From positions 1 through 64,000 of IMG/VR virus record IMGVR_UViG_3300028909_000018: 64,000 nt of DNA; one strand, given 5' to 3'. The position numbers were made by a program, and so were the translations under genes. Source of the DNA: a virus. How positions within the stretch are numbered: position 1 is the stretch's first letter; the number at the start of each line of letters is the position of its first letter. Below the pieces are notes generated by a model. It did not search any database. It worked only from the letters and a program-made list of their open reading frames with translations, and was not told where the DNA came from. Below, piece by piece: positions 35,042 to 54,085 of the stretch.

Positions 35042-35437
35042 ATGCCTGATCCAAAAATTCGATACACCAATCTGGTCTGTGTTTCCTACAAGGCCAACGC
35101 CTTAACGACCGAGTACCATTTCATGGGCCTCACCAAGGAAGAGGCCGACGCCAAGCTTCAGGAGTTTCTGAATAAGAAGTCTCCTGAGCCTGCTCCCGCC
35201 CCTGTGGTGGAGGCTCCCAAACCCATTCCCGTCGTCTTCCCCTCTTTCGCCCCGTCTGCGTCTCCCTCTCTCACCTTCTCCGACACCAAACATGATCAAC
35301 CCCTTTATGGCAACACCGGAAAGACGTGGATGATTTCTAAGGAGAAACATGAGCGTGTCAGAGTAGACGCCGACAAGGTGGAGAGCTATCTTGCTGCCGG
35401 ATATATCAAGGGTGGACCCCGCACTTCAATCGATTGA
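35042..35437 (+). CDS. Hypothetical early protein
   Basis: AAGGAG RBS; Pro-rich linker; C-terminal GKTWM...YL..GY.KG. Confidence 0.7.
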   Translation: MPDPKIRYTNLVCVSYKANALTTEYHFMGLTKEEADAKLQEFLNKKSPEPAPAPVVEAPKPIPVVFPSFAPSASPSLTFSDTKHDQPLYGNTGKTWMISKEKHERVRVDADKVESYLAAGYIKGGPRTSID

Positions 35438-35451
35438 GAAGGAGATTTAAA

Positions 35452-35619
35452 ATGGAATATCGTGCTAGTTACATACGTGAGTTGATGCCGAAGAAGCCTT
35501 CCACCTTCGAACTGATGCAGGAGCAAATGGTCGTTGTGGCGAAAGGGTGGACATCGAGTTCTTCATTATGCAATGTATTTTTCCGAGGAAGAGGCTGTTT
35601 CTCTTCGGGAGAAATTTGA
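35452..35619 (+). CDS. Hypothetical protein
   Basis: AAGGAG RBS before ATG 35452. Confidence 0.45.
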   Translation: MEYRASYIRELMPKKPSTFELMQEQMVVVAKGWTSSSSLCNVFFRGRGCFSSGEI

Positions 35620-35717
35620 AAAACTTGGGTTCATCGTAAATGTAAATAAAAATGCATTTGGTGATGAATATGACAATTCTCACTTGATTTCTATTCATTG
35701 GTGAAAGGAATAATATC

Positions 35718-35999
35718 ATGGAAAAGCATCCTCTACAGGTGGCGCTGGAATCCTTGGCCGAGGAATATGACTTCAGGGTTCGGTCCTATTCAGGTCGTGG
35801 AATGTATGGGGCCGAATGCCTCGCCATCTTCGGTGAAGACATTAACCCGATGCAAATCGGCTTTCTCGTAGGCCGAGATTATAGTATGGATTTTCATCAT
35901 CTAGATGGTTGGAAAAAAGACACCATGGGTCATCATCGAGTTGTTTACTATTGGCCTCAGATCGATTATGTTGGAGGTTGGTTGAATGACGATGACTAA
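35718..35999 (+). CDS. Hypothetical phage protein
   Basis: RSYSGRGMYG.ECL motif; AAGGA RBS. Confidence 0.7.
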   Translation: MEKHPLQVALESLAEEYDFRVRSYSGRGMYGAECLAIFGEDINPMQIGFLVGRDYSMDFHHLDGWKKDTMGHHRVVYYWPQIDYVGGWLNDDD

Positions 36000-36064
36000 C
36001 CACCAAATTTGGTTTTCGATTGTTTTGTTTTGTCTTATCTTACACTTTTTGGGAGTATTTTAAA

Positions 36065-36379
36065 ATGGTAAATTATGAACGAAAGTATGTAGAAGTGATG
36101 CTTGCCGGATGGCTTGGTTTTCACATGAAGAGCCTAGACGAGGCCATCACATATCTACAAGGACTGAAGGCGCAATATGGTGACAACTGCACCATCAATG
36201 AGTATAATGATAGTTATGATAGTAAATATCTCGGTCTTTTTCAGGAGATTCCTGAGACCGACGCACAGATGAAAGTTCGTATCTCTCAGGAAGAGGATTT
36301 GGAAAAGCGCCGTTACAAGCAAGAGCGTCTTCAATATGAAGAACTGAAGAAGAAGTACGGAAAAATTTCTGCACTATAG
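36065..36379 (+). CDS. Hypothetical protein
   Basis: GGGAG RBS; C-terminal YEELKKKYG. Confidence 0.65.
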   Translation: MVNYERKYVEVMLAGWLGFHMKSLDEAITYLQGLKAQYGDNCTINEYNDSYDSKYLGLFQEIPETDAQMKVRISQEEDLEKRRYKQERLQYEELKKKYGKISAL

Positions 36380-36814
36380 GCCTAGCTCATTCTCTGTTAT
36401 TATCTGAAATTCCCATTCACGAGATTTACAATATTCTCGTGCATATTTCCATTTTGCATCGTTGATGGCGTAGGTCAGAACATCGTTAATAAACCCTTTA
36501 GACATTCTTTTTCCCTTGACAGGTGGAAGAGTCTGTTTGAAGGGTTTTATTTCGACCATGATAGTTTTAATAACTCCGTTACGATCCCGAATCTTGATCA
36601 CGGCGTCAGGAAAGTATCGGTGCTTCTTGTTATCCTTGGGAGAGATGTAAGGAACTATAACTTCTTCCGACGACCACTCCAAGACATCAGGCCGGGAGTC
36701 GAACTGCATATAAAGTTTTAATTCCCATGAGGATCGGTAGACGATGTTTGAAGGATCACCTTTATATTTCTGTGGGTTCTTCGCCCTGAACATTCCTTGA
36801 TGATATCTGGGCAT
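36374..36814 (-). CDS. gp4: Head completion protein gp4
   Basis: NPQKYKGD..NIVYRSSWE, WSSEE..VPY.SP.D.K.HRYFPD, EIKP..QT.PP and N.AKW motifs. Confidence 0.92.
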   Translation of the reverse strand: MPRYHQGMFRAKNPQKYKGDPSNIVYRSSWELKLYMQFDSRPDVLEWSSEEVIVPYISPKDNKKHRYFPDAVIKIRDRNGVIKTIMVEIKPFKQTLPPVKGKRMSKGFINDVLTYAINDAKWKYAREYCKSREWEFQIITENELGL

Positions 36815-36826
36815 TCATTCTTTCCA

Positions 36827-36849
36827 ATAAATATGTTTGTAATATTTAT
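36827..36849. promoter_or_regulatory. Pair of oppositely oriented late promoters for gp48 (+) and gp4 (-)
   Basis: ATAAATA on plus at 36827-36833 and on minus at 36843-36849. Confidence 0.7.
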
Positions 36850-36863
36850 CAGAAGGAACGAAC

Positions 36864-37880
36864 TTGGCCTTTATAACAAATATATTAAATGACCTTGAGA
36901 TTGCTGGTGTCATCACCGCTGCCGTTGGAACTGCGGCGCTGGTGGCGACAGCAGCAGAGGTATATAGTCTTTCGGGATCAACAAACGCAACAGATTATAC
37001 TAATTCTCAGACCACAGTATATCCTACTGATCTTTTAAGTTCATCATCGGCCAACAACGACTTCTGTATGAAGTTTGATTTTTATCAATATCAAAGACCG
37101 ACCATCTTCAGTAACGTTTTTACAAAACCGTTCGGAACAATCGTCCTTCCCATTCCCACGAACATCGTGGATCACCAGAGCATCGGTTATGTGGATTCAG
37201 ACCCAACAAATCCCGCCCTAGGCGCGGCGCTGGATGGCATGGTGGGCTCCTATAGGAATAATCAGGCCAACTGGATGGCGTCGGCCGTAGAGTCTCTTGG
37301 ACCAGCGTTATATGGCGCTGGAACGGCCGGGGCCGTTGGTGGGGCAACAAATATCTTGAATACTCTCGGAAAGACCGTTGGACTCGGTAATGCCGCCAAC
37401 AGAATCTTCCAGACATCCGGTCTCGCTGTCAACCCATATCTCACGGTTTTATTCACCGCCCCAACATTTAAAAGACATACTTTCATTTGGAAATTCATGC
37501 CTAATAATCTTCAGGAATCCAACACGATAAAATATATCATCAACAAATTTAAATATCATCAGCTTCCTGACACAAATCAGGCCACCGCAGGATCACTATT
37601 ACAATATCCCGATGTGGTTAGACCGACGATCATTCCCCAAGGATATGTCTACAGCTTTAAACATTGTGTGATTCAGGATTCCATCGCTAACTATGCCCCC
37701 GGCACGACGCCATCATTTGTCGGATCATCCAATGCGCCATCGGCTATTGAATTCACTATTCAGCTTCTTGAAATTGAGTATTTCCTTAAGCGTGATATGG
37801 TAAATACGACTGATCCAAATTTCTTGCCGCCTACAAGTGAAACGACAACAACAATAATTCCTCCATCGGCTAACGGTTAA
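36864..37880 (+). CDS. gp48: Baseplate tail tube cap gp48 (TTG start)
   Basis: IVLPIP, NPY..VLF.AP.FKRH.F.WKFMP.N..ES, YP and L.E.E motifs. Confidence 0.8.
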   Translation: MAFITNILNDLEIAGVITAAVGTAALVATAAEVYSLSGSTNATDYTNSQTTVYPTDLLSSSSANNDFCMKFDFYQYQRPTIFSNVFTKPFGTIVLPIPTNIVDHQSIGYVDSDPTNPALGAALDGMVGSYRNNQANWMASAVESLGPALYGAGTAGAVGGATNILNTLGKTVGLGNAANRIFQTSGLAVNPYLTVLFTAPTFKRHTFIWKFMPNNLQESNTIKYIINKFKYHQLPDTNQATAGSLLQYPDVVRPTIIPQGYVYSFKHCVIQDSIANYAPGTTPSFVGSSNAPSAIEFTIQLLEIEYFLKRDMVNTTDPNFLPPTSETTTTIIPPSANG

Positions 37881-37887
37881 TCAAATC

Positions 37888-38778
37888 ATGGATACATATT
37901 TTTCAAAATTCCCTCTTACTTCATATAATGGGATGCCTGTGGTGGATATCACCAGACGCGCCGTCATATCCAATACTGACCTCCTGAATCCATTCTTTTA
38001 TTATCCTGTGACTATCAATAATAATGAAAGAACCGATCAGATATCCAGAAAATATTATCAAGACCCCTATCAGGAGTGGGTTTTGTTCTTGACGAACCAA
38101 ATCTATGATCCCTATGACCAGTGGTATATGAATAATGAAGAGTTTCAGGATTATATGTATCAGAAGTACACCAACATTCCTCTGACAACCCAGACCATCA
38201 TGTACTATACAAATAATTGGTTTTTAAACACCGACCGTGTGAGCGTGGCGTATTTTGATGCTCTCGACCCTTCGCTTATGAAATATTATCAGCCGAATCT
38301 TGACGGATTCGGATCGGTAACGAGCTACAGCAGGATTCAGGAAGATTGGACGATCAACACAAATCATTTGGTTTCTTTTAATTTCTCCAACACAATCCCA
38401 CAATTCATCAACAATGAAATCGTCGCCATCAATTATGGTGCCAATCTGGTGGGCTCAGGACAGGTTGCGGTATGCACAAATAATGTTCTGAATATTCAGC
38501 ACGTCTCGGGATATTATCTCCCCAACGGGGTCGTCAATGCCGCTGCCTTCTCGATTCTGGGAAGTCAGTCCAATGCCTTAATAACTATTCCAAACGCCAA
38601 CGCCGTGACCATCTTATCCTTCGACACCATTCCACCAGAAGAGGATGTGTTTTATAGTCCTGTCTACGTCTTCGATTATGAAACGAATATGAATGAAAGC
38701 AATAAGGTTTTGAACATTTTGGTCAGTGGATATGAGACCCAAGTTTCTGACGCCTTGCAGAAGGCTCTTAATTCATGA
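37888..38778 (+). CDS. gp53: Baseplate wedge gp53
   Basis: YFSKFP..Y, ER.DQIS..YY.DP...WV..L.N.I.DP..QW and YE...NE.. motifs. Confidence 0.85.
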   Translation: MDTYFSKFPLTSYNGMPVVDITRRAVISNTDLLNPFFYYPVTINNNERTDQISRKYYQDPYQEWVLFLTNQIYDPYDQWYMNNEEFQDYMYQKYTNIPLTTQTIMYYTNNWFLNTDRVSVAYFDALDPSLMKYYQPNLDGFGSVTSYSRIQEDWTINTNHLVSFNFSNTIPQFINNEIVAINYGANLVGSGQVAVCTNNVLNIQHVSGYYLPNGVVNAAAFSILGSQSNALITIPNANAVTILSFDTIPPEEDVFYSPVYVFDYETNMNESNKVLNILVSGYETQVSDALQKALNS

Positions 38779-39971
38779 TTCCCGGCTATAATCCCGGCGA
38801 CGTATTCATCACCGACCTAACGATGTCGTCACCCCGAGGGTCTTTAAACCTCGGATCGATGTTTGCCACCATGAAAGTTTTTGAAAGTATTTTCGTGCCT
38901 AATGTCATTGCCGAGATTACCGTCTTCGACGTTAACGACGCGCTGGGCAACATGAACATCATCGGAGACGAGACCGTGACGACCACCTTCGGGGCTCCCG
39001 GAGGCACCATGGCGTCATATACATTCGCCCTTGATCAGATCACCAACATACATGGCGAGGGCTCCACAAAGTCAAAAATCTACACCCTGCATGGCGTTGG
39101 CGAAGAGACGATGTATGCCAAGACGAACTTCGTTCAAAAGAATTATCAGACCGATATCGCTTCCATCGTTTCTGATATTCATAGGACATTTTTAATGAGT
39201 GGTAAGTCTCTCTCGACAGAATCAACGAGCGGCACCCAGAATATCATGATCCCGAACTACGATCCCTTTAAGGCTATTGACATGGTGAGACGCCGCGCGG
39301 TGTCGGCATCAAATCCATCATCAACATTTCTTTATTTTGAAAATGCTCTGGGGATGTATTTTAAAACGATGGAAGGAATGCTTCAACAGGGGCCGATAAA
39401 GACCTTCTTACATCAGGATACTGTAGGTAATTCTCTCTATATCGACACCAGCACCAACATCATCGCACTTGATGTTCCACAGATTGCTTCCTCGACCGAA
39501 AGAATCTCGATGGGTGGACTGATGCAGCGGATATCGACCTATAATATCAGAACACGAAGTTATCAATATAAGGATGTCGCGCCACCGACCAGCGGCTTCA
39601 ATTCATCGGCCTTCACGGCGAAGTATGGCAACAAGTATGGATCAACTTCAATGATCCCTGTTGACACCGCAAGCCGTCCCTTCACCGGGATCGATACGAT
39701 GACGCCTAATCAGCTTGGTTATATTTCAAATCTTATGCAGACGCAAGTGAAGATCAAGGTTAATGGTGACGCGCTGGTCAAGGCCGGGGATGTCATCCAA
39801 TTAAAAATTCCCGAAATGATTAATATCACGTCACCACAACCCCTCGACCCACAGATTGCGGGTAACTATCTGGTCACAAGGATGTGTCGGAATATCGGCC
39901 CTTCCCAACAGCATCCAAGATATACAGATTCCATTGAGTGTATTAAGGGTGATCTGAACGGCGCATCTTAG
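38775..39971 (+). CDS. Baseplate hub protein (gp27-like)
   Basis: VFESIF, IIGDE, IPN..PF.AI, FLYFEN..G.YFKT and V.GD..VKAGD.I...G.YLVT motifs. Confidence 0.7.
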   Translation: MIPGYNPGDVFITDLTMSSPRGSLNLGSMFATMKVFESIFVPNVIAEITVFDVNDALGNMNIIGDETVTTTFGAPGGTMASYTFALDQITNIHGEGSTKSKIYTLHGVGEETMYAKTNFVQKNYQTDIASIVSDIHRTFLMSGKSLSTESTSGTQNIMIPNYDPFKAIDMVRRRAVSASNPSSTFLYFENALGMYFKTMEGMLQQGPIKTFLHQDTVGNSLYIDTSTNIIALDVPQIASSTERISMGGLMQRISTYNIRTRSYQYKDVAPPTSGFNSSAFTAKYGNKYGSTSMIPVDTASRPFTGIDTMTPNQLGYISNLMQTQVKIKVNGDALVKAGDVIQLKIPEMINITSPQPLDPQIAGNYLVTRMCRNIGPSQQHPRYTDSIECIKGDLNGAS

Positions 39972-40149
39972 GCTCACTCACAATATGTGTTTGCCGCCAT
40001 ATGCTCACCCTCGATCCTTATGATATAGATCGTGAGCCCTTTGCTGATATCCATAAATTTCTGTCTGGCCTCACGAATATCCGAAGCATAGATGGTTTCA
40101 TATCCTGAAATTCCATACTTCGGATTTTCGTAGTGTATCACAAATTCCT

Positions 40150-40917
40150 TCACTTGAGAAGGAATTTGTTGGCACCGGGAAGGTTGCCAGTGGAGCGTGA
40201 TCCGCCACCCAACTGGTTATCGAGGGAGATGGTGTTGGCTGCGTTATGACCGGCCATGGAAGCCGAATTGAGGGAAGTGGCGCGTTGCTTACGCTTCTTC
40301 ATGAATTCTGTATCAGACAGGAATTCCTCGACCAGCGCCAATTCGGTGGAATACAACGCGGGAAGGTTGGACTTCTCACCAGCCGGGGTAACCGGGGCCT
40401 TCACCGCCTCGATCTTGTCGTAAACGCGACGGGTCAGACGCAGACCACAACCCATTTCGAAGTGATAACGCTGCGTGGCCTCCGACGAGAACTTGCGGGA
40501 AAGACGAACTACAGTCTTTTCGAGATATTCGAACATCGAAATTGCGATGGCCCGATTATGTTCCTTACCTACGAAGACGAACTTGGCGACGCGCTTCAGG
40601 TTGCCGGTCTTGCCATATTCGGTGCTGGTGCTGATATAGCCCTTGCAGAAGAACAGCTTGGCGACGACACCCATGAGGGTCTGACGCCACTTGATATGAC
40701 CATAGGAAGTCTCGTAAATGGTCTTGTCCATGGTGGCCATGTCGGCCTCTTGGGCTTCCTCGGTGACCATCGACATATCGAGGTTATGGGCGGCGAGAAG
40801 CAACTGAGCCTTGTTCATGAAGGCCATCGCCTCTTCCTCGGTGACCGAGGCGTCTTTCGACATGGCGAGAAGCTTCTTGATTTTTTCGATCATGGAGGCG
40901 TTGGAAGAAGCTGACAT
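40150..40917 (-). CDS. DUF2786-domain protein
   Basis: IEKIKKLLAMS...EEEA.....AQ.LL..HNL; sigma70 promoter upstream. Confidence 0.8.
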   Translation of the reverse strand: MSASSNASMIEKIKKLLAMSKDASVTEEEAMAFMNKAQLLLAAHNLDMSMVTEEAQEADMATMDKTIYETSYGHIKWRQTLMGVVAKLFFCKGYISTSTEYGKTGNLKRVAKFVFVGKEHNRAIAISMFEYLEKTVVRLSRKFSSEATQRYHFEMGCGLRLTRRVYDKIEAVKAPVTPAGEKSNLPALYSTELALVEEFLSDTEFMKKRKQRATSLNSASMAGHNAANTISLDNQLGGGSRSTGNLPGANKFLLK

Positions 40918-40989
40918 TTAAAATCTCCTATCATTGATTCGATGACCCTTTATAGGCGATTTTTAAAAACTTGTCAAATGAATTCGAAC

Positions 40990-41062
40990 GAATTTGTCCG
41001 AAGAATGTAACATTTTTAGGACAAATTCATCTTTGTCAGAAAAACGTATACATTCTTCGGAC
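40990..41062. repeat. Two tandem imperfect palindromes (four related half-sites)
   Basis: 40990-41008/41010-41028 and 41032-41048/41049-41062; perfect 14-bp inverted repeat 40996-41009/41049-41062. Confidence 0.75.
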
Positions 41063-41070
41063 TTATTTTT

Positions 41071-42165
41071 TTAATGAATCTCTAAGTCATTGACAACAGT
41101 GAGTTTTCCGTCTCGTAGAAGTGTCAGGCTCACCTTGTCGCCAACATTATGCATCGCGACTTCCTTGATAAGAGCGGCAGGAGTAGAAATGTTGACCGTA
41201 TCAATTTTCAAAATGATATCACCAGCCTTCAGCTTATCGTTATGGTTAAGAATCTGATCATCATCCATGATCCCCTGAAGCCTGATGCCCTTATAGAAGG
41301 TATCACCGGCCACAAGCGACAACATCTCTGTATTTTCGATGATGACAAGGCCGATATGCTTCTGTTGGAATCTTCCCGTCTTGATAATCTCGGTCACCAC
41401 CACCTTGGCATACTTAGAAGGGATGGCGAATCCAAGACCGGCAGAAGTATGTGATGGTGAATATATGGCCTGATTAATCCCGATGACTTCACCATTCATA
41501 TTGAAAAGAGGGCCACCAGAATTGCCGGGATTGATAGGCGTATCAGTCTGAAGTGAATCATCGAAAGGCGAATCCAGACCTTCGGAGTTTTCACGATCAA
41601 CAGCCGAAATGACACCAGCCGTCAGGGTATGATTAATTCCATAGGGACTTCCCACGGCAAAAACTTGTTGACCAACCTTCATCTTCTCACTATCACCAAA
41701 GGCGACGGTAGGAAATTCACGATCAGTTTCGCTCTTGACAATCTTTAGAACGGCGATATCAGTTGCTCTATCCGATCCTACTACTTCCACGTCACGTTCC
41801 GATCCATCCTCAAGGACGATGGTTATGTTTCTATTACCAGAACCCTGAATGACGTGATTGTTGGTGATGATCAGCCCATCGGTGCTGATAATGAAGCCAG
41901 AACCGATTGCACCACCAGTCTTGTGCGGTGAAAAAGGAAGAAGAACATCCTTTTCTTTATGTTTCTTTATAATGATTTCATTGACAATATGATCCAGATC
42001 AGACATCTGTGTCCACAGAATAGGAATATCCAACTGTGGTGCATGGATGGTGACGACAGCGGGAGACACCCGTTGATATACGTCGCTTATTTCTTCTCCA
42101 AAAGCCGCCCCATAGGCGAATAGAAGAGCTACGGCGGTGACGATAAAGACGATAAGATACTTCAC
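41071..42165 (-). CDS. degP: HtrA/DegP-family serine protease with signal peptide and one PDZ domain
   Basis: GSGFII..ITNNHVI, DIAVLK and INPGNSGGPL catalytic triad motifs. Confidence 0.93.
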   Translation of the reverse strand: MKYLIVFIVTAVALLFAYGAAFGEEISDVYQRVSPAVVTIHAPQLDIPILWTQMSDLDHIVNEIIIKKHKEKDVLLPFSPHKTGGAIGSGFIISTDGLIITNNHVIQGSGNRNITIVLEDGSERDVEVVGSDRATDIAVLKIVKSETDREFPTVAFGDSEKMKVGQQVFAVGSPYGINHTLTAGVISAVDRENSEGLDSPFDDSLQTDTPINPGNSGGPLFNMNGEVIGINQAIYSPSHTSAGLGFAIPSKYAKVVVTEIIKTGRFQQKHIGLVIIENTEMLSLVAGDTFYKGIRLQGIMDDDQILNHNDKLKAGDIILKIDTVNISTPAALIKEVAMHNVGDKVSLTLLRDGKLTVVNDLEIH

Positions 42166-42518
42166 TTTGGGGCCACCGTGTTATCATCAGCAATAATTGA
42201 ATCAAAAAGATTACGAAACTTTTCGAGACTCATGGTAGAATTTATTTCCGTTGTGCCGTAAGAGATGACACAAACCTTTTCGGTCTCGGTGGATGCGGAA
42301 AGGACCATCGTCTCCTTGGTTTTAAAGTTGAAGAAGATGCTGAATTTATCCTTGACCAGCTTATCCGCAATGACCAAGACAGGTTCGAAACCTTTCTTCT
42401 CGATGCCTTTAACGAAGTCTGCATTTCTGCTGCAATCAGGAACATCCTGAGTATAGGTTACAGCCATGGCAGAGGTAGAGAGAGCAAAAATAAATCCAAG
42501 TGCGGCTAGAAGTCTCAT
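42162..42518 (-). CDS. Secreted hypothetical protein
   Basis: Signal peptide ...SAMA-V; two Cys; coupled to degP. Confidence 0.7.
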   Translation of the reverse strand: MRLLAALGFIFALSTSAMAVTYTQDVPDCSRNADFVKGIEKKGFEPVLVIADKLVKDKFSIFFNFKTKETMVLSASTETEKVCVISYGTTEINSTMSLEKFRNLFDSIIADDNTVAPK

Positions 42519-42586
42519 TACATTTCCTTATGTGGGAGGGGGTTTTAACACTTCTATTTATGGCAGACTTCTAAGGCTTTGTCAAA

Positions 42587-42661
42587 TGGAGGCGCTACTG
42601 AGGATCAAACTCAGGTCTCAAGATTTGCAGTCAAGCGCATGGGTCACTCTGCTACAGCGCC
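42587..42661 (-). tRNA. tRNA-Cys(GCA)
   Basis: GGCGCTG/TAGCGCC acceptor, loop CTGCAAA, encoded TCCA. Confidence 0.85.
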
Positions 42662-42671
42662 GAAAAAGTCT

Positions 42672-42902
42672 TGGTGGGGTAAACTGGTGTGCTTACCTCT
42701 TTCTTGACATCCAAGTATGCCGACCCCTCTTACCAATGCCATTCATTACGCCTAGTAGAGCAGTAATGAACTGGGGTAGATATCCATGATCCACAAAGCC
42801 TCTACTAAGGTGACGGATCAGAAGGAACATCTAGCTACTATCTTGCATGATGGCTGAGAGGGCTCACCTGTCATTTAATCCTCTTGCACAGAGGAACCAC
42901 CC
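42672..42902 (-). ncRNA. Unknown structured RNA (~231 nt) ending in CCA
   Basis: Nested helices with G-U pairs on the minus strand, 8-nt complementary loops, late box 42906-42912 directly upstream. Confidence 0.7.
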
Positions 42903-42912
42903 AAGTATTTAT

Positions 42913-42961
42913 CCTCTGCCGGGAAGATTCCCCTAGATGCCTTATCAGGGCATGACAGAAG
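42913..42961 (-). ncRNA. D-armless tRNA-Ile-like mini element
   Basis: CTTCTGTC/GGCAGAGG stem, ATGCC-CTGATAA-GGCAT arm, GGGA-ATCT-TCCC arm. Confidence 0.45.
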
Positions 42962-42963
42962 TT

Positions 42964-43037
42964 TGGAGCGGGATAAGAGATTCAAACTCTTTTCATTAGC
43001 TTGGAAGGCTAAGGCACAATCCATATACCAATCCCGC
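42964..43037 (-). tRNA. tRNA-Gly(TCC)
   Basis: GCGGGAT/ATCCCGC acceptor, loop CTTCCAA, TCCA end. Confidence 0.9.
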
Positions 43038-43053
43038 GATTAGTGTATTCTAT

Positions 43054-43372
43054 TTATACTAAATCTATCTCGTCTATCTCGTAAAAGTCTTCAGAAGGTG
43101 TAAGAAGACGGTTTTCATCTATAATTTTTGAATATCTACAATCAAACATATCATAATTTATGCGCTTTCCGTACTTGTCATATACAAATTTATTCTGAAT
43201 TTCCATCATTTCTGACATAAGTTCATTGTGTTTCAGAACATCCTTTGCTTGTTTTTCTTTCAACTCCACAACAAATGCATTGGCGTCGGCCTCATTATGG
43301 AAGGCCTTTTAAATCCACACGTTTAAATTCCTCGTAAATCAACTCTTGTCGGTAAACAACATAAATCTTCAT
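43054..43372 (-). pseudogene. Frameshifted hypothetical gene (or single-base assembly error)
   Basis: MKIYVVY...RVDL continues in the +1 frame as KAFHNEADANAF...FYEIDEIDLV at GATTTAAAAGGCC (~43304-43315). Confidence 0.55.
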
Positions 43373-43376
43373 ATCA

Positions 43377-43481
43377 CTAATCCTTCATTTTCTTACGGTC
43401 ATAGACTTTCTTGGACTTCACCACCCGCATCTTGTACTTAGGAGTTCGAAGGTCTTTGGCAATCATGTTTCGCGTTTTCAT
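43377..43481 (-). CDS. 34-aa basic peptide, ArfA-like
   Basis: MKTRNMIAKDLRTPKYKMRVVKSKKVYDRKKMKD; AAGGA RBS. Confidence 0.6.
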   Translation of the reverse strand: MKTRNMIAKDLRTPKYKMRVVKSKKVYDRKKMKD

Positions 43482-43500
43482 GACAAATATCCTTTAAAAA

Positions 43501-43578
43501 TGGCGGGGAATGACGGAATTGAACCGACATTGCACTGGTTGAAGGCCAGTTTTCCTAGTCCTGTTAGAAGAATTCCCC
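43501..43578 (-). tRNA. tRNA-Glu(TTC) with C33
   Basis: GGGGAAT/ATTCCCC acceptor, Glu-type D arm, loop CCTTCAA, GCCA end. Confidence 0.8.
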
Positions 43579-43626
43579 AATTCTTTATTTATATGCAATA
43601 TACGAATTTGCATACAATGTCAACCC

Positions 43627-43908
43627 TTATAGGAAATAATTTGTATCCTTTACCTTATCCCATGGAGCCGTGTACAACTTGAAAGGACATCCACAGCCTC
43701 GAAATGTCTCCTGCCAGACTCGAATCGTCTCTTCCTCCAACGGACCCAGCACAATCTCGGCCTGATTAGGCGGCGAAATCTTTTCGATGAAGTTAACATG
43801 CACGTTTCGAAACATGAATTTGGCGAAGACTTGTGGATAGTTAACGTCTACATCGAAGACGAATCGGGCAACGTAGTGCATTTTTTTCCTTTTGAAGAAG
43901 TTAAACAT
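43627..43908 (-). CDS. Hypothetical protein
   Basis: 93-aa ORF on the operon strand. Confidence 0.55.
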   Translation of the reverse strand: MFNFFKRKKMHYVARFVFDVDVNYPQVFAKFMFRNVHVNFIEKISPPNQAEIVLGPLEEETIRVWQETFRGCGCPFKLYTAPWDKVKDTNYFL

Positions 43909-43915
43909 TTGTTAT

Positions 43916-44281
43916 TTATAGAATAAAATACGCGGTGACGAACAGGGTAAGAAAATGAATCGTCTGATCCAGACCCACGACGACGAAGAAATTATGCCTG
44001 TCACCTTTCTTATAGAAATATGACGATGCCCTAGACGTGATGAAGTCAACACCAAAATGGATGACGCCATTTATTAAGGCAAATAGGAGAATATCGTTTG
44101 TGTCTATACCAAAACGAAAAATAAAAATACCCAAAAATAATATCAGGGTATACACACCGACATGTGCTGCCAGCGCCTCGTTGTTAACACTTTTATTCTG
44201 TGCCATCCAATCATTTTGGAGAAAGAAGTCTCCATACCAATGTATAAGAAGCAACACGAGAATGAGAGGTAGACTAATCAT
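43916..44281 (-). CDS. DUF3307-like membrane protein
   Basis: H..GDF.LQ..WMA..K, H and H..VD, DQ..H motifs; hydrophobic. Confidence 0.8.
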   Translation of the reverse strand: MISLPLILVLLLIHWYGDFFLQNDWMAQNKSVNNEALAAHVGVYTLILFLGIFIFRFGIDTNDILLFALINGVIHFGVDFITSRASSYFYKKGDRHNFFVVVGLDQTIHFLTLFVTAYFIL

Positions 44282-44299
44282 TTCAAATCCTTTTTAAGT

Positions 44300-44375
44300 T
44301 GGTAGTCCGTGTCAGGTTCGAACTGACAACCTTGGAATTAAAAGTTCCTTGCTCCACCCATTGAGCTAACGGACT
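44300..44375 (-). tRNA. tRNA-Lys(TTT)
   Basis: AGTCCGT/ACGGACT acceptor, loop CTTTTAA, TTCGAA T-loop, ACCA end. Confidence 0.9.
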
Positions 44376-44379
44376 GGAA

Positions 44380-44456
44380 TGGTAGACTTGGAGTGATTCG
44401 GACACTCGACCTTTCGCTTAAGAGGCGTCTGCTCTAACCAACTGAGCTACAAGTCC
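44380..44456 (-). tRNA. tRNA-Lys(CTT), atypical
   Basis: Loop CTCTTAA; only 3 anticodon-stem pairs; T-loop TCCGAAT; ACCA end. Confidence 0.8.
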
Positions 44457-44462
44457 AAAAAG

Positions 44463-44675
44463 TTATTTATCTTTCCTGTTTCTGATGTAATCCTCGACGT
44501 TCAAAAGATTCCTGAGCATTTCTCTACGCGCCATCGCATATTCAGGTCCAAGAACCAGAAGATCATTAGTCAAACGATTAAACAGAACACGAAGTTTTTC
44601 CAGTTCTTCATCAGTGACATGATCACCGTAGTAAAACTTTTTATAAATTCCGGCCAACTCTGTATCAAATCTCAT
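44463..44675 (-). CDS. Hypothetical protein
   Basis: GAGG RBS, 70 aa. Confidence 0.6.
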   Translation of the reverse strand: MRFDTELAGIYKKFYYGDHVTDEELEKLRVLFNRLTNDLLVLGPEYAMARREMLRNLLNVEDYIRNRKDK

Positions 44676-44697
44676 ATTATATCCTCTCTAAAAAGTA

Positions 44698-44994
44698 TGT
44701 GGGAGACTCGCGGTATCACGCGAATAATATACCCCTCTGTGCCTGTCGGTCAGTAGATAAATGCATGTCATCACACACATTCAGGGCTCCTATCTCATCT
44801 CCAAATAAGTTCTGGAGCTATGCCTAGCTTCAACGAGACCGATTTTACTCGTCCCTCCACTCCTAACATTAATTTAAGTCCCGCCCTCCAGATAGCGGTT
44901 CCGAGGTAGTTCCCGATCTCGTCCTAGAACACGTCTACCTGTGTTCAGGACCAGCCAGATAGCGACTCTGGCAATTCCGTAATCTTACTCTCCC
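44698..44994 (-). ncRNA. Unknown large structured RNA (~297 nt) with pseudoknot potential
   Basis: GGGAGA/TCTCCC terminal helix, at least 6 hairpins, loop-to-downstream complementarities, no credible ORF. Confidence 0.65.
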
Positions 44995-44996
44995 TC

Positions 44997-45428
44997 TTAG
45001 AGATTGTCAATGGCCTCTTTTAGAGATTCTAGAGTATCGACACCTTTTTGAGAATAACCAACCTTCCATTCTTTTCCGTCCCAAACGTAGGCATATTCCG
45101 TCCAACAGTCGGGCATAGGCCATATATATTCCAGAGTCTCGGCTTCAAAAGCCTTGACATCTTCCCAAGGTTCATTACCACGATCCCTAAAGTAGGCGAC
45201 ACAATAGCCGTCAACCTTATTCTCCCAGCTATGCCCCTTGGGTTTGGTGCATTTCGGACCAAGAATCGACAAATTCCCCAGCCCGATCAGCTTCTCGGCC
45301 TTCTTGGTGGAATTATAATTCTCGAATAATATCTTACCATTATGTCTCACATAACCATCCCAATGGCAGTAAATACGACGCCAGACGCCATCCTTACACA
45401 AAACAATAATATCACTTCTGGTTCCCAT
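44997..45428 (-). CDS. Conserved phage hypothetical protein
   Basis: MGTRS.I...IYCHWDGY....G..L and EYAY.WDG..W motifs. Confidence 0.75.
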   Translation of the reverse strand: MGTRSDIIVLCKDGVWRRIYCHWDGYVRHNGKILFENYNSTKKAEKLIGLGNLSILGPKCTKPKGHSWENKVDGYCVAYFRDRGNEPWEDVKAFEAETLEYIWPMPDCWTEYAYVWDGKEWKVGYSQKGVDTLESLKEAIDNL

Positions 45429-45472
45429 GATACATACTCCTATGATTTGAACAATATCACTTTAAATCATTT

Positions 45473-45748
45473 TTAAACGTTGTCAACCACTTTTTTCTCT
45501 TTCATCGGAGAAACAGAAGGAACCTTCGCCTTCTCTTGAAACTTTCCGCCCCACACCGCGTCGTAGACACCCAAGTTATAGGCCGACGCCAGAATTTGCA
45601 TCACTTCTCTATAAGAAACAAATTCGTCTGGCGTATTAAACACCGACTGACATTGTTTATGCATCCATGCCAGCGTCGCCGGATCAGTGATACGCAGTTC
45701 TACCGGAAGCGGAAAGAAAGGTATGTAATCAAGAAAATGTTGTGACAT
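45473..45748 (-). CDS. Hypothetical protein
   Basis: MSQHFLDY... with GAGG RBS. Confidence 0.5.
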   Translation of the reverse strand: MSQHFLDYIPFFPLPVELRITDPATLAWMHKQCQSVFNTPDEFVSYREVMQILASAYNLGVYDAVWGGKFQEKAKVPSVSPMKEKKVVDNV

Positions 45749-46215
45749 GGCACCCTCACTTGAACCCCATAAAAAAATCATTGATGGAAAGCGTATCAAT
45801 CCCACCAAAATATTGGATGATTCCTGCGAAAATTATCATAATAGTAATGATAAGCATGAGGGCGAGGCAATGTTCAACGAATCGCCGGATTATCTGTTCT
45901 CGACGCCACACCTTGGCGAAATCTTCCATGTGGCTCATTTCAATATTCCTCCAGAATTTCGCCAGTATCTTTGTTCTTGATGAAAGCATACTGATAAGAA
46001 TGTTGACGATACTCCCTCACCGTCTCAATAGCCTCCGAAAGGGTGAAACAATCCTCCAGATGCTCGGGCTCGGCACCATATCCGTAGACATCATTCCAGC
46101 CGCCCCAAATTTCATAATGTGGATAATTCATGATAAAAAACCTCCGCGTTGATATGATCAATATAAATGGTTTTGATTCTATGTCAAGCGATAAATATCA
46201 AAAAAGAAGGATTTT

Positions 46216-47571
46216 ATGACAGAACGAGCATTTGGTTTTGATAACAGGCATTGGTGGGGCGTCGTCGTCAACGTCATGGACCCTGACAAGGAGGGTCGTG
46301 TCCAAGTTAGAATCCATGGCCTGCATGACGATGCGACTAATATTCCTGATTCTGCTCTACCATGGGTCAAACCTCTACAAAATATAACTTCGGCAGCACA
46401 TAATAAAATTGGCAAGATTCCTGTCGGCCTGATCGTCGGATCGACGGTATTTGGGGTCTTCCTCGACGGGGATCAACAACAGCCGATAATGATGGGAACC
46501 ATCGCCAAGGCTGGTGACGCAAGTAGTACAGAAACAACAGGAGGATCGGAATCTCTAAAACAAGGAACCAATTCTACGCCTCCCGGTGGGAGAATATTTG
46601 ATAATGGTTTCTCGACCAGAAGCACTCAGAATATTAAGACAGATGACCAGACCAAGATCACATATCCAAATTACACACCAACCGAGCAAAATGATTCCGA
46701 TGGCAAGGATATCACCGAGGATGCCCGTAAGAAGACAAAGTTCTATAGTATTCCCACCGTAGCATCATTAACTTCTATCGGTGGATCGATTCTTCAGCAG
46801 CTTCAGACTGTTGATCCACAGAATCTCAATGCAGTTCTTCCCAATGCGATTTCATCATTTATTAAGATGAAAGATATTTCCGACCTCGGATCGACCTCGG
46901 GACTTCAAGGCGCGATGGGGAACATGTTGGGATCGGCGTTATCATCGATTTCTGGCCAGCTAGGAGCCTCCACAGTCATCAACGCACTATCGGCAGGACT
47001 GTCGGGTGCCACCCTATCCAGCACGGCCCAGAGCGTCTTATCGACGGCCCTGATGAACATGGGTCAGACGCCCGTTCTTTCCGACACCATGAATAGCGTG
47101 ACGAATCAGTCTCTCCAGTCTTTAATTAATATGATTTTACCGCTGCTACAGAACGGTTCCGTCTCGGCCTCTGCCCTCGAATCCATCATCGCGCTGTTTT
47201 TAGAACAACTTCAAAATAATGGAATGCAGAGCATTCTCGGTGCTGGGATCACGCCTGCCAGCATCCTATCAAACCTATCGAGTGTTCTACCGACCATCGC
47301 CGGGGCAATTAACACCACGCTCGATACCCACCTTCCAAAATCTGTTTTAGATAATTCTATATTGACTCAGGCGCTTCAGAAGTTTTCAACGAATCAGGCC
47401 TTTCTGAAGGCTCCTACGAACGGCAGGAAGGCACTTGCCATCAAGGCGGCGGAAGGGTCGGCCAATCAGCCCCAGAGCGTCATGGACACCATCTCTTCCC
47501 TTCCCGGAGTTGCACAAGGAGTGACCACCAATACAATCCAAGGTCTAGGAAATCTATTCGCAGGAAGTTAA
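46216..47571 (+). CDS. gp5N: gp5 N-terminal OB-fold fused to a helical Ser/Leu/Ala-rich domain
   Basis: WWGVV....DP...GRVQVRI.GLH......LPW and G..V.G.FLDG..QQP..MGT motifs; late box 46191-46197. Confidence 0.85.
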   Translation: MTERAFGFDNRHWWGVVVNVMDPDKEGRVQVRIHGLHDDATNIPDSALPWVKPLQNITSAAHNKIGKIPVGLIVGSTVFGVFLDGDQQQPIMMGTIAKAGDASSTETTGGSESLKQGTNSTPPGGRIFDNGFSTRSTQNIKTDDQTKITYPNYTPTEQNDSDGKDITEDARKKTKFYSIPTVASLTSIGGSILQQLQTVDPQNLNAVLPNAISSFIKMKDISDLGSTSGLQGAMGNMLGSALSSISGQLGASTVINALSAGLSGATLSSTAQSVLSTALMNMGQTPVLSDTMNSVTNQSLQSLINMILPLLQNGSVSASALESIIALFLEQLQNNGMQSILGAGITPASILSNLSSVLPTIAGAINTTLDTHLPKSVLDNSILTQALQKFSTNQAFLKAPTNGRKALAIKAAEGSANQPQSVMDTISSLPGVAQGVTTNTIQGLGNLFAGS

Positions 47572-47927
47572 TAAATTATTCCTTTTACTTCCTTAATTTT
47601 CTTAAGCTTGGCACCAATAAGATCAAACGACTCATTATCGATCAGCCAATCGTTCTTGCGAGTCTTATTAATTTGATCACGCCTTGCGAGACTCAACATC
47701 ATATAGGCATATTCAAGCAATTTTTCTGTTGAATAGTTGTCAGGATCGTAGGTCATTTTTATTCTCCCCGAATGAATGTCAAAAGACGATTTAGAAAATT
47801 GATTTCATTATCAATTTCCCAATAACTGTCTCCCTTATCAGAGAGACAGGATTGTTCGATAATTCTCATAGCGAGGCGGGTTTTAATCATACCCGCCGTG
47901 TTTATGAGTTTTTCTTTATTATCCATA

Positions 47928-48482
47928 TTATACCACCTTTTCAAACTTGGGACGGGAGACAATGGTCTGATTCACGCCTTCACGAACCGAATGATCCTTG
48001 ACCGTCGCCTTGCCCTTTACGGCATCACCACGAGCGGCTTCCAGATACTTCGAACCCTTGTAAACGACGACGTTACCGGCCTCGTCCTTAAGGATATGAA
48101 TATGGAGCATACCGAAGTCAGTCTCGTAAGAGAAGTGGTTTTGCATGGTGAGGGTGAAATCCTGACGCTTACCAACCTCACCAACGAAGACCGAAGCGGC
48201 GTCAGCAGCCTTCCAAGCCGCCTTACGCTCGTCTTCCTTGGCGAAAATCTTACGAACGGCAGCTTCCTGACCAGCGGTGAGGGAGCCCCAATCGGCATAA
48301 TTCGTCAGCATGGTGCTGATGAAGCTGTTAGAAGACTTGTACATCTTCTCGACCAGAACGGCGCGGGTGGCGTCTTCGGCCATCCAACGTGCAGCTTTGC
48401 TCTTTTTCGCATTGGCCATCTTGTAGCCCTCAATCGCGGGAAAGTAACGGTCGGCGTGGTCATGTTGTTCGTCGTAGGCCAT
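47928..48482 (-). CDS. Hypothetical early protein (possible C-terminal OB fold)
   Basis: WGSLT.GQ, FVGEVGKR and KATVKDH..REG..QT...RP motifs; sigma70 promoter at 48510-48538. Confidence 0.7.
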   Translation of the reverse strand: MAYDEQHDHADRYFPAIEGYKMANAKKSKAARWMAEDATRAVLVEKMYKSSNSFISTMLTNYADWGSLTAGQEAAVRKIFAKEDERKAAWKAADAASVFVGEVGKRQDFTLTMQNHFSYETDFGMLHIHILKDEAGNVVVYKGSKYLEAARGDAVKGKATVKDHSVREGVNQTIVSRPKFEKVV

Positions 48483-48724
48483 GATGTTTCTCCGTTGTTC
48501 CGATGATATGAATATAAATCATTCATATCGGGATGTCAACGGATATTTTTAAAAAATTAGAGAAATTTCTGATTAAACGCCTTTGGATCAATCCAAGCAC
48601 AAAAAATTAGGAATGCAACCATAGGGTTACGTGTCATCCAGATCACGAGGGCAGCACCGGCGATGATGGCCAGATCGATGAGGAATGTTTTCACATGTTT
48701 CATGACAAAAATCCTTTAAAAGAA

Positions 48725-48858
48725 GAGAATAACAGGGGTCGAACCTGTCACCTTACGTCATTTCCATGGTTGGATCGTAAGGTATGGAGCCTTGCAAACT
48801 TCACTTGACGCTACTCAACTAGCCTTTCACGCCATATTACTGTGCATACCGTATTCTC
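48725..48858 (-). ncRNA. tRNA-like RNA (~134 nt)
   Basis: 7-bp GAGAATA/TATTCTC helix stacked on the T-arm ACAGG-TTCGACC-CCTGT; inner ACCTTACG/CGTAAGGT stem; no CCA. Confidence 0.6.
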
Positions 48859-48863
48859 ATAGA

Positions 48864-48952
48864 TGGCGGAAACACCCATATCCGACATGGACTCCCTTTC
48901 GAGAGCAATCTGTTTAGCAAACAGTTGCCGATCCCCTCGGCTTGTCATTTCC
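48864..48952 (-). tRNA. tRNA-Ser(GCT), non-canonical fold
   Basis: GGAAATGAC/GTGTTTCC-GCCA, 5-bp D stem, loop TTGCTAA, long variable arm, 4-bp T stem lacking TTC. Confidence 0.75.
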
Positions 48953-48960
48953 ATTAAATT

Positions 48961-49053
48961 TGGCGGAAGAGTGGCTGTGTCGATCACCATACGATTACTC
49001 ATCGTACCATCCGATTTCAAGTCGGTGAAGGGAGCCGTCCCTCATACTCTTCC
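48961..49053 (-). tRNA. tRNA-Ser(TGA) with a tRNA-Sec-like 8-bp acceptor fold
   Basis: GGAAGAGT/ACTCTTCC-GCCA, 6-bp D stem with 4-nt loop, loop CTTGAAA, 7-bp variable arm. Confidence 0.8.
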
Positions 49054-49079
49054 ATATTTCTATTTATTCTTTTTAATTT

Positions 49080-49145
49080 AGTATTTTGACCTTTGTATGT
49101 TAGCGTCTGAGAATGACAATTAGGACATATAACCATAAGATTTTT
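49080..49145 (-). pseudogene. HNH endonuclease C-terminal remnant
   Basis: KNLMVICPNCHSQTLTYKGQN without the upstream HNH core. Confidence 0.6.
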
Positions 49146-49326
49146 ATTTGAAATCCGAAGGTACGGTTTCAATCCAAGTTTGTTTTTCATCAGAAACATA
49201 CAAAACCTTGTCATAATTCTCGAAAAACTCCTTACTATCCACGTCATCCCGGAAATTCCGAAGATGCTCGTTTATCTGATCATTGTCAAGTCCCTTATCG
49301 ACCCTAACGTGAAAAATATATTTCAT
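49144..49326 (-). CDS. Hypothetical protein (60 aa)
   Basis: AGGAG RBS before ATG 49326. Confidence 0.6.
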   Translation of the reverse strand: MKYIFHVRVDKGLDNDQINEHLRNFRDDVDSKEFFENYDKVLYVSDEKQTWIETVPSDFK

Positions 49327-53086: not shown

Positions 53087-54085
53087 TTACCAGCGGTTCA
53101 TTTGCGCCTGATGAAAATAATATACCTTATTTCCGTAGGTGTCAAGGAGAAAATCCTCAATCCACGCCTTGTCCACATTCTCAGGCAAGGTAGATTTCAT
53201 GGCTGCATCTTCGACATCCACAAACAATTCCTCAATCTTTTCAGACACTTCCTTGTATGGAAGCCATCCCTTCTTGATATTTAGAAGTTCGGGAGCATTG
53301 GGACGAGGAAAAATAATGTTATGGGTTCTGAATAGCTCCACCGCCTGCTGCCCAATTCGAACAGCATGAGATAATGCCTTCCAGTCCACGCCTTCATTCT
53401 TTTCGGCCTGTAGAGCCCTCTTTCCATACCCGTCCACGATCTTCTCGACCACAGAGAAGGCGCTTCCGACAGAGGCGGTAAAGGGTAGCAGACGATCACA
53501 TACATCCAGATGACGAATCTCCTGACCACTGGCCAGAGGGATATCCACGATCTTGATGAATTCCTTGTCCTTGGCCCATACGTCGATCTTGGTGGCATAA
53601 TCACCCAGCTTCTTATTCATTCCCAAAATACTAACAAGATGGTTAAGAAATTCAAGCGCATCACGAGCGGCGGCGACGCGGGAGCCCTTGATGCCGTATT
53701 TGTTGGCTTGTTGACGACAATAGCCGATGAAGGCCTTGGACTGCCGGGAGATGAGTTTTTTCCGATTATTCTGAATACGAGTCCACATAGGAGAGTGTTC
53801 AAGAATATAATTATTCGGAGCGAAGAGCATGTCCAGAGAAACCGTCTGACCTTCCGCGACAAGCTTCAGATACTTATCGAGACTGTAAATTTCCTCATCG
53901 ATGTCGGCGGAAGAATTTTTCTCAAACTCAGGCTTCTCCTTAGAGTAAGAAATTGATTCCTTGACGCGACGCAGAAGAATATCCTCGGCGGTGGGAATAT
54001 AAACCGCCTTGTAATCTGTATCGCTTGTGGGAGTATTTGTCCCATATAAGGATGATCCGAAGAGCAATCTAACAATCTTTTCCAT
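53087..54085 (-). CDS. Pol-beta-superfamily nucleotidyltransferase (RlaP/T4-like)
   Basis: FGS.LYG..TP.SD.D, QA.KY..KG.R and DWKALSHA.R motifs. Confidence 0.85.
   Translation of the reverse strand: MEKIVRLLFGSSLYGTNTPTSDTDYKAVYIPTAEDILLRRVKESISYSKEKPEFEKNSSADIDEEIYSLDKYLKLVAEGQTVSLDMLFAPNNYILEHSPMWTRIQNNRKKLISRQSKAFIGYCRQQANKYGIKGSRVAAARDALEFLNHLVSILGMNKKLGDYATKIDVWAKDKEFIKIVDIPLASGQEIRHLDVCDRLLPFTASVGSAFSVVEKIVDGYGKRALQAEKNEGVDWKALSHAVRIGQQAVELFRTHNIIFPRPNAPELLNIKKGWLPYKEVSEKIEELFVDVEDAAMKSTLPENVDKAWIEDFLLDTYGNKVYYFHQAQMNRW

Follow-up and report, generated by a model that had tools for sequence, protein, structure and literature searches.

The locus considered here raises the question of whether two irregular serine tRNA-like genes in the tRNA array of a peat phage, W1 and W2, are working tRNAs with an 8-bp acceptor and a 4-bp T stem (8/4), or whether they are ordinary 7/5 tRNAs read in the wrong register, decaying remnants, tRNA-shaped RNAs with no part in translation, or pieces of a recoding system. 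The carrier is an IMG/VR virus contig of 107.5 kb with an estimated completeness of 62%; its first 64 kb (64,000 nucleotides) are the stretch analysed here and referred to as the window. The phage is T4-like, the products of the contig include a T4-type baseplate hub, Dda helicase, gp44 clamp loader and gp45 clamp, and near-identical DNA is present in many peat metagenomes. All six serine codons are in use in this phage, together accounting for 7.9% of codons and split into 79% UCN and 21% AGY, and serine is absent from the tRNA calls on the contig (14 by Rfam, 13 by ARAGORN). No serine tRNA other than W1 and W2 was found on the 107-kb contig, and the anticodons of these two, UGA and GCU, can between them cover UCN and AGY codons. 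Two further members of the tRNA repertoire may be noted in passing: a tRNA-Cys(GCA) at window 42590-42661 on the minus strand, scored at 46.6 bits by Rfam and not called by ARAGORN, and, beyond the window at contig 96889-96976 on the minus strand, an 88-nt tRNA whose anticodon is CCA (Trp) and which has G73, a variable arm that is long and structured, and a T stem that is weak. Among the matches of the Rfam tRNA-Sec model to this contig the latter ranks second, at 28.7 bits, and it may represent a class II body on a Trp anticodon. Synteny of the upstream 334-aa protein was found at one locus (L001, 55% identity), which carries no tRNAs downstream.

W1, an (8/4) tRNA-Ser(UGA) of 93 nt at 49053..48961 on the minus strand, is delineated by its sequence, its MFE cloverleaf, the family covariance model and covariation within the family. 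Its 8-bp acceptor is formed by GGAAGAGU (49053-49046) and ACUCUUCC (48972-48965), with the linker AU after the 5' strand, and is followed by a D arm (49043-49028) in which a 6-bp stem, GAGGGA/UCCCUU, closes the loop CGGC (49037-49034). The anticodon UGA (49019-49017) sits in the loop CUUGAAA, the variable arm has a stem of 6-7 bp, the 4-bp T stem GGUG/CA(G)CC carries one bulged G on its 3' strand and a loop AUCGACA, and the gene ends with G73 at 48964 and an encoded CCA at 48963-48961. On the same strand, after an AU-rich spacer of 8 nt (AAUUUAAU, 48953..48960, minus) that is kept in a sister phage, follows W2, a divergent (8/4) tRNA-Ser(GCU) of 89 nt at 48952..48864, for which sequence, MFE cloverleaf and the covariance model are the evidence. 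Here the 8-bp acceptor GGAAAU(G)AC/GUGUUUCC has G7 (48946) bulged and the linker AA after the 5' strand; the D arm has a 5-bp stem, GCCGA/UCGGC, and a 5-nt loop, GGGGA; the anticodon GCU (48918-48916) lies in the loop UUGCUAA; the variable arm GCUCUC-GAAA-GGGAGU forms a 6-bp stem with a GAAA loop; the T arm consists of the 4-bp stem CCAU/AUGG and the loop GUCGGAU, which has neither U54 nor A58; and G73 again precedes an encoded CCA. The anticodon loops of both are canonical, with U33 and a purine at 37, and unconstrained MFE folding returns five-arm, long-variable-arm cloverleaves for both (z = -2.5 for W1 and -2.1 for W2). The original prediction of two Sec-like serine tRNAs at this place is thus borne out on the minus strand by sequence, MFE folds and the covariance model, as is its warning that standard scanners may miss them: ARAGORN at default settings calls neither gene, and the Rfam tRNA (RF00005) and tRNA-Sec (RF01852) models give no match at W1 or W2 even at E<=10. 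Running ARAGORN over 48601-49200 with relaxed thresholds or in its intron and mitochondrial modes produced implausible calls only, namely a Trp(cca) inside the neighbouring RNA W3, an intron-containing Gly and two-base anticodons, which we rejected.

Whether the body of W1 is truly 8/4 can be read from its relatives. A pattern made from the W1 D arm recovered a first homolog, L002:508-594, in a 247-kb phage contig, with tRNAs 5 nt away on both sides and compensatory changes in every stem. A second pattern, made from the T loop and 3' end, matched at least 116 loci on viral contigs, and among those listed there were 41 distinct W1-like genes, 34 of which, all from viral contigs, were aligned. 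The 8/4 cloverleaf imposed on this alignment comprises 28 pairs, with 99.1% of cells paired over these 34 of the matches listed; 22 of the 28 pairs change on both sides, a degree of covariation matched by 0 of 500 shuffles, and controls with slid partners pair in 39-50%. The eighth acceptor pair (col8:col85) is formed in 34/34 sequences, as UA in 16, GC in 10, AU in 6 and CG in 2. The competing fifth T-stem pair that a 7/5 fold would need (col68:col85) draws on a U that does not vary, situated on the T stem's 5' side and best interpreted as position 48, and is unpaired in 16/34. Because the eighth acceptor pair covaries and the rival fifth T pair fails in 16/34, the W1 family is 8/4 and not 7/5, and refolding of W1 as an ordinary 7/5 tRNA-Ser, the outcome that would have overturned the original prediction, is not what the covariation gives. 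All six pairs of the 6-bp D stem covary, and the CGGC D loop is invariant in 34/34 sequences even though it lay outside the search pattern; the T loop and 3' end, being fixed by that pattern, carry no information through their invariance in this alignment. The bulged base in the 3' strand of the T stem, which defines the subtype to which W1 belongs, is present in 8/34 of the aligned relatives.

With a covariance model of the W1 family built from these relatives, W1 reaches 86.5 bits (E 2e-18), a match far beyond chance and on a par with typical members of the family, and the W1 homologs lie 3-10 nt from ordinary tRNAs inside phage tRNA arrays. A BLAST of the 2-kb region, of W1 and of one family member against 50,697 deposited phage genomes returned nothing for W1, the sole weak matches being in one 735-kb uncultured phage. 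A metagenome scan with the combined W1 D-arm and T-loop pattern gave six matches, which were discarded as chance occurrences in coding-like DNA. As a separate observation, five phage loci (L060, L081, L106, L120 and L128) carry a tRNA-Ser(GCU) with an ordinary 7/5 body and the unusual A54 T loop AUCGACA, so that this T loop is common to both architectures.

The next consideration is which amino acid such a body would carry. The covariance model was run on 100 fetched viral loci among the matches listed and gave at least 86 matches, at least 66 of them distinct. Serine anticodons account for 65 of the 66 distinct matches listed (UGA 31, CGA 13, GCU 11, GGA 9, AGA 1), and the one left over is a false positive, a class I tRNA-Ala. 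Within the family G1:C72 and G2:C71 do not vary, A3:U70 is common and G73 is present. In bacteria, the long variable arm, G73 and acceptor pairs make up the set by which SerRS recognises its tRNAs, and the anticodon is not read (PMC7609411); W1 and W2 both possess the long variable arm, as well as G73, of this SerRS identity set.

The likeness to selenocysteine tRNA that had drawn attention to the locus is real. In W1 as in bacterial tRNA-Sec (selC), the acceptor has 8 bp and starts GGAAGA..., a linker of 2 nt follows, the D stem has 6 bp and closes a CGGY loop, the anticodon stem likewise has 6 bp, the variable arm is long, the T loop has UCGAC, and G73-CCA is present. Across 151 alphaproteobacterial genomes, one of them unpublished and supporting none of the statements made here, the best cellular matches of the family model were genuine tRNA-Sec genes at 45-57 bits, with UCA anticodons, an 8/5 fold, a 6-bp D stem, a CGGU loop and a UUCGAC T loop, and ordinary cellular tRNA-Ser scored ~40 bits or less; the phage family therefore resembles selC more than it resembles tRNA-Ser. 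Combined with the 8/4 fold established by covariation, this upholds the notion of a Sec-type scaffold carrying serine anticodons. It also invites the thought that W1 and W2 belong to a selenocysteine or stop-codon recoding system, as relatives of tRNA-Sec or as latent opal suppressors, a thought to which the acceptor length, D arm and T loop of W1, the ranking of tRNA-Sec genes as best cellular matches and the presence of a CUA suppressor tRNA elsewhere in the phage all lend some weight. We nevertheless find it barely credible. The anticodons UGA and GCU read serine codons; selC, which requires SelA and SelB, has UCA and a T stem of 5 bp (8/5, 13 bp), in contrast to the 12-bp 8/4 branch and UGA of W1; the Rfam tRNA-Sec model finds no match at W1 or W2; and the 107-kb contig, at 62% completeness, has no SelA (PF03841), no SelB wing domain (PF09107) and no SerRS. 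That one anticodon change would turn such a tRNA into a UGA reader, as had been suggested, is formally true, but none of the 66 distinct family matches listed has a UCA, CUA or UUA anticodon. The amber-reading tRNA (CUA) itself lies beyond the window, at contig 97847-97924 on the minus strand, although the phage ORFs need no TAG recoding. Global recoding of a stop codon in this phage was considered and rejected, the stop-free frame coverage under code 11 being 72-100% per 10 kb, with no sign of need. The 13-bp branch of tRNA-Sec steers it to SelB and away from EF-Tu; with a branch of 12 bp rather than 13, the phage family should use EF-Tu.

W2 is the more irregular of the pair, and it is mainly for W2 that one might suppose a decaying pseudo-tRNA left behind in the array. 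The family model gives it a low score, 36.3 bits (E 2e-6 in 95 kb, filters off), and the acceptor bulge, the 5-nt D loop, the non-canonical T loop and the rejection of both genes by ARAGORN and Rfam could all be expected of debris. The model does, however, match W2 far beyond chance and align it from end to end, inserting just one base, at acceptor position 7, and a search with a pattern of its D arm and anticodon found relatives of four kinds: a near-identical copy in the sister phage (L004:14426-14514, minus), one in a complete 181-kb phage (L003:6394-6480, plus), one in a tRNA-array contig binned with a Roseiarcus MAG (L054:5933-6022, minus), and a GC-rich trio (L005, L006 and L009) that is unambiguously 8/4 with G8:C. 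When W2 and the first three of these were aligned, the bulged 8/4 fold paired 98.3% of cells, the unpaired ones arising solely from a one-column alignment shift in the T stem of L054, and 12 pairs changed on both sides. The eight acceptor pairs, with one bulged base, are 100% paired and the T stem has 4 bp, which places the W2 type within 8/4; at the pair that follows the bulge, three sequences have C:G and one has U:A. Three phage lineages thus keep the bulged fold through compensatory changes, which in L003 and L054 fall in the acceptor, anticodon, variable and T stems. Between W2, its homolog in the sister phage and a DNA contig of run X17, the differences are confined to the variable arm (U.G to C:G, and one loop base). 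Since the bulged fold is both conserved and covarying, W2 is a divergent but conserved member of the 8/4 class and not debris. As W1 scores like typical family members and is found 100% identical in a second genomic context, we hold it very improbable that either gene, W2 included, is a decaying remnant.

Other registers for the W2 type were tried. Reading W2 and L003 as ordinary 7/5 requires 4 nt to link the acceptor to the D stem and U.G as the fifth T pair, and was rejected because covariation favours the bulged 8/4 register (C9:G to U9:A); a 9/3 reading of W2 was rejected because it fails in L003. Scanning the genome contigs with the W2 pattern gave 39 matches, one of which (L054) was real, and the family model, with 150 of ~3,600 candidates scored in the Roseiarcus MAG, matched only in the array contig. 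That contig, on which at least 12 tRNAs lie, probably represents phage DNA that was binned into the MAG. We note that its tRNA-Ser(GCU) has nine nt per acceptor strand with a 4-bp T stem, possibly a 13-bp branch (8/5- or 9/4-like), and that a tRNA-Ser(UGA) at L003:2035-2118 (plus) is readable as either 9/3 or 7/5.

The sister phage L004 offers a natural comparison. It is collinear with window 35363-49214 at ~86% identity, and the alignment spans W3, W2, the spacer and W1's final 13 nt; homology breaks over the W1 body and its upstream region only and resumes at 49152. Exactly in the slot of W1, L004 carries a canonical 7/5 tRNA-Ser(UGA) called by ARAGORN (L004:14523-14617, minus), which the 8/4 family model scores at 24.9 bits. 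Like W1, this tRNA has the UGA anticodon, the same position in the array, a similar acceptor, a long variable arm and G73-CCA, and the two presumably do the same job; unlike in W1, its acceptor has 7 bp and leaves U8 free, its T stem has 5 bp and a UUCGAAU loop, and its D stem has 3-4 bp and a large GG-containing loop. The presence of a 7/5 tRNA-Ser at this very slot means that the 8/4 and 7/5 forms are interchangeable cassettes. A low-depth DNA contig from run X17 has the W1 upstream region in common and diverges at 49052 into unrelated sequence; within the peat population, the slot of W1 seems variable.

Just beyond W2 lies a third RNA, W3, in the same array as W1 and W2 but not a serine tRNA. 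This 135-nt tRNA-like RNA begins 5 nt downstream of W2 (48724..48858, minus strand) and is recognised by sequence, fold and its L004 homolog (L004:14282-14420, minus), the only one that a W3 pattern scan of viral contigs found. It has a perfect 7-bp acceptor, GAGAAUA/UAUUCUC, and a canonical T arm, ACAGG-UUCGACC-CCUGU, with extra hairpins between the acceptor and a D-like arm and a conserved AUCCAAC loop; it lacks CCA and any convincing anticodon arm. A 165-nt permafrost metatranscriptome contig covers W3, and its population variants include A.C or A.G mismatches in the T stem. Also in the neighbourhood, at window 53087-54085 on the minus strand, a 332-aa protein that adjoins dda matches Pfam RlaP (E 3.5e-14), an RNA-repair-pathway polymerase-beta-type nucleotidyltransferase, and may have a role in tRNA repair or end-healing.

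Such surroundings bring up another explanation, that W1 and W2 are tRNA-shaped RNAs that do not translate and act instead as decoys or sponges that occupy the host's tRNA nucleases or its modification enzymes, or as regulators. They adjoin an RNA without an anticodon arm, the gene for the RlaP-type protein is 4 kb away, W2 has an acceptor bulge and an odd T loop, and a non-translating role has been proposed for some irregular allo-tRNAs, among which allo-tRNA(UAU) and the irregular polycistronic tRNAs of peat and forest were inactive or uncharged in E. coli (PMC5389517). We consider this quite unlikely here, given that the anticodon loops of W1 and W2 are canonical with U33 and a purine at 37, that the anticodons of 65 relatives listed are restricted to serine, which a decoy would not need, that the sister phage fills the W1 slot with an ordinary tRNA-Ser, and that the phage has no other serine tRNA among those found.

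As to expression, a T4 late-promoter-like motif, AATAAATA, putatively functional, lies on the minus strand at 49061..49068 and ends 7 nt upstream of G1 of W1; no sigma-70-like site was found upstream of W1 on the minus strand. Over the whole contig, the minus (coding) strand has 32 copies of [T/A]ATAAATA where ~9 would be expected, and the motif precedes seven tRNA starts (Met, Ala, Val, Glu, Gly, Arg-like and W1) at distances from a few to ~13 nt, mostly 4-8 nt, which suggests near-leaderless, late-transcribed tRNAs in this phage; further examples of the motif lie at window 43586-43593 and 43051-43058. In a peat metatranscriptome (run X19), a 193-nt contig is 100% identical to W1 over precisely the stretch G1 to G73 and diverges on both sides. 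On its 3' side W1 is followed by 'A' and then the first 29 nt of a D-armless Arg(UCU)-like tRNA, which in the phage genome is 40 kb away at contig position 88602, and on its 5' side stands foreign sequence, ...UUCCAGCUCC; this contig could stem from another phage, in which tRNA genes lacking CCA abut each other, or be a chimeric cDNA. As the contigs covering W1 and W3 come from RNA libraries, DNA carry-over is a possible source of both. No contig covered W2 in two metatranscriptome runs, a result that says nothing on its expression.

Taking these observations together, we regard it as very likely that W1 and W2 are working phage (8/4) tRNA-Ser isoacceptors. The fold, its conservation and covariation, the serine-only anticodons of the family matches listed, the placement in an array and the interchangeability with a 7/5 tRNA-Ser support this reading; we infer processing, charging, EF-Tu use, ribosome use and the timing of expression. 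In the scheme we propose, W1 and W2 would be transcribed with the neighbouring RNA from the late-type promoter just upstream and would be excised from the short-spacer array. Host SerRS would then charge them through the long variable arm, G73 and the pairs G1:C72/G2:C71/A3:U70 rather than the anticodon, and EF-Tu would deliver them, the acceptor/T branch having 12 bp and not the 13 bp of tRNA-Sec. During infection they would supply serine decoding beside the ~16 other tRNAs of the phage.

The class to which W1 and W2 belong is not new, as (8/4) tRNA-Ser in bacteriophages were already reported, together with allo-tRNAs having 8/4 and 9/3 branches, a tRNA-Sec-like D arm with a tetraloop and bulged 8/4 variants (Mukai et al., 2017, PMC5389517); the original prediction was right in taking 8/4 allo-tRNAs as known. 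Allo-tRNAs have been efficiently serylated and used in translation in E. coli (PMC5389517; review, PMC7609411), and some irregular peat-soil tRNAs failed there in aminoacylation or in translation (PMC5389517). Judged from the published description, our pair resembles the (8/4) tRNA-Ser of Mukai et al. in the 8-bp acceptor and T stem of 4 bp (a branch of 12 bp), the long variable arm, G73, the longer anticodon stem, the serine anticodons, the location within phage tRNA clusters and the invisibility to standard finders, and, for W1, in the long D stem with a tetraloop. This Sec-like D arm is complete in W1 and partial in W2, with its 5-bp stem and 5-nt loop. What differs is, in W1, the one base bulged out of the T stem's 3' strand and, in W2, the bulge in the 5' acceptor strand together with the shortened D stem and enlarged D loop. 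Mukai et al. (2017, Fig. 4) describe irregular extra-loop polycistronic tRNAs in metatranscriptomes of peat and forest. These share with the present array a peat origin and tandem irregular tRNAs, and W3 resembles them in its extra hairpin between the acceptor and D region. Unlike W1 and W2, however, they have non-serine or suppressor anticodons and U73 or G-1, and they are linked to toxin-antitoxin loci attributed to acidobacteria, whereas the present array is in a T4-like phage.

What advantage the 8/4 body might bring is a matter for speculation. It could be a counter-defence or insulation device, with phages exchanging a 7/5 tRNA-Ser for an 8/4 one, as seen against L004; this we think unlikely, and the evasion of tRNA-targeting toxins that the original prediction suggested would be of this kind. 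On the same, equally doubtful reading, the 8/4 body would keep serine decoding running against a host nuclease or modifier that recognises the canonical class II acceptor, T and D geometry. Phage tRNAs are reported to evade anticodon nucleases via changes in the anticodon loop (PMC10264068), and defence nucleases can even prefer phage tRNAs (PMC13056530); nothing in these two accounts ties escape to an 8/4 body.

With the class already published, the existence of W1 and W2 would be no surprise to a tRNA specialist. What this study adds is a quantitative covariation proof of the 8/4 fold, the serine-only spectrum of the family, the exchange of 7/5 and 8/4 forms in one slot, and two bulged subtypes. 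Phage genomes annotated with ARAGORN or Rfam seem to be without serine tRNAs while carrying 8/4 ones, and with at least 66 distinct members in 100 viral loci, analyses of codon supply and tRNA repertoire in large phages are biased by this gap. The 8/4 versus 7/5 swap between sister phages, lastly, constitutes a natural pair that makes the question of why a phage should have an 8/4 body testable.
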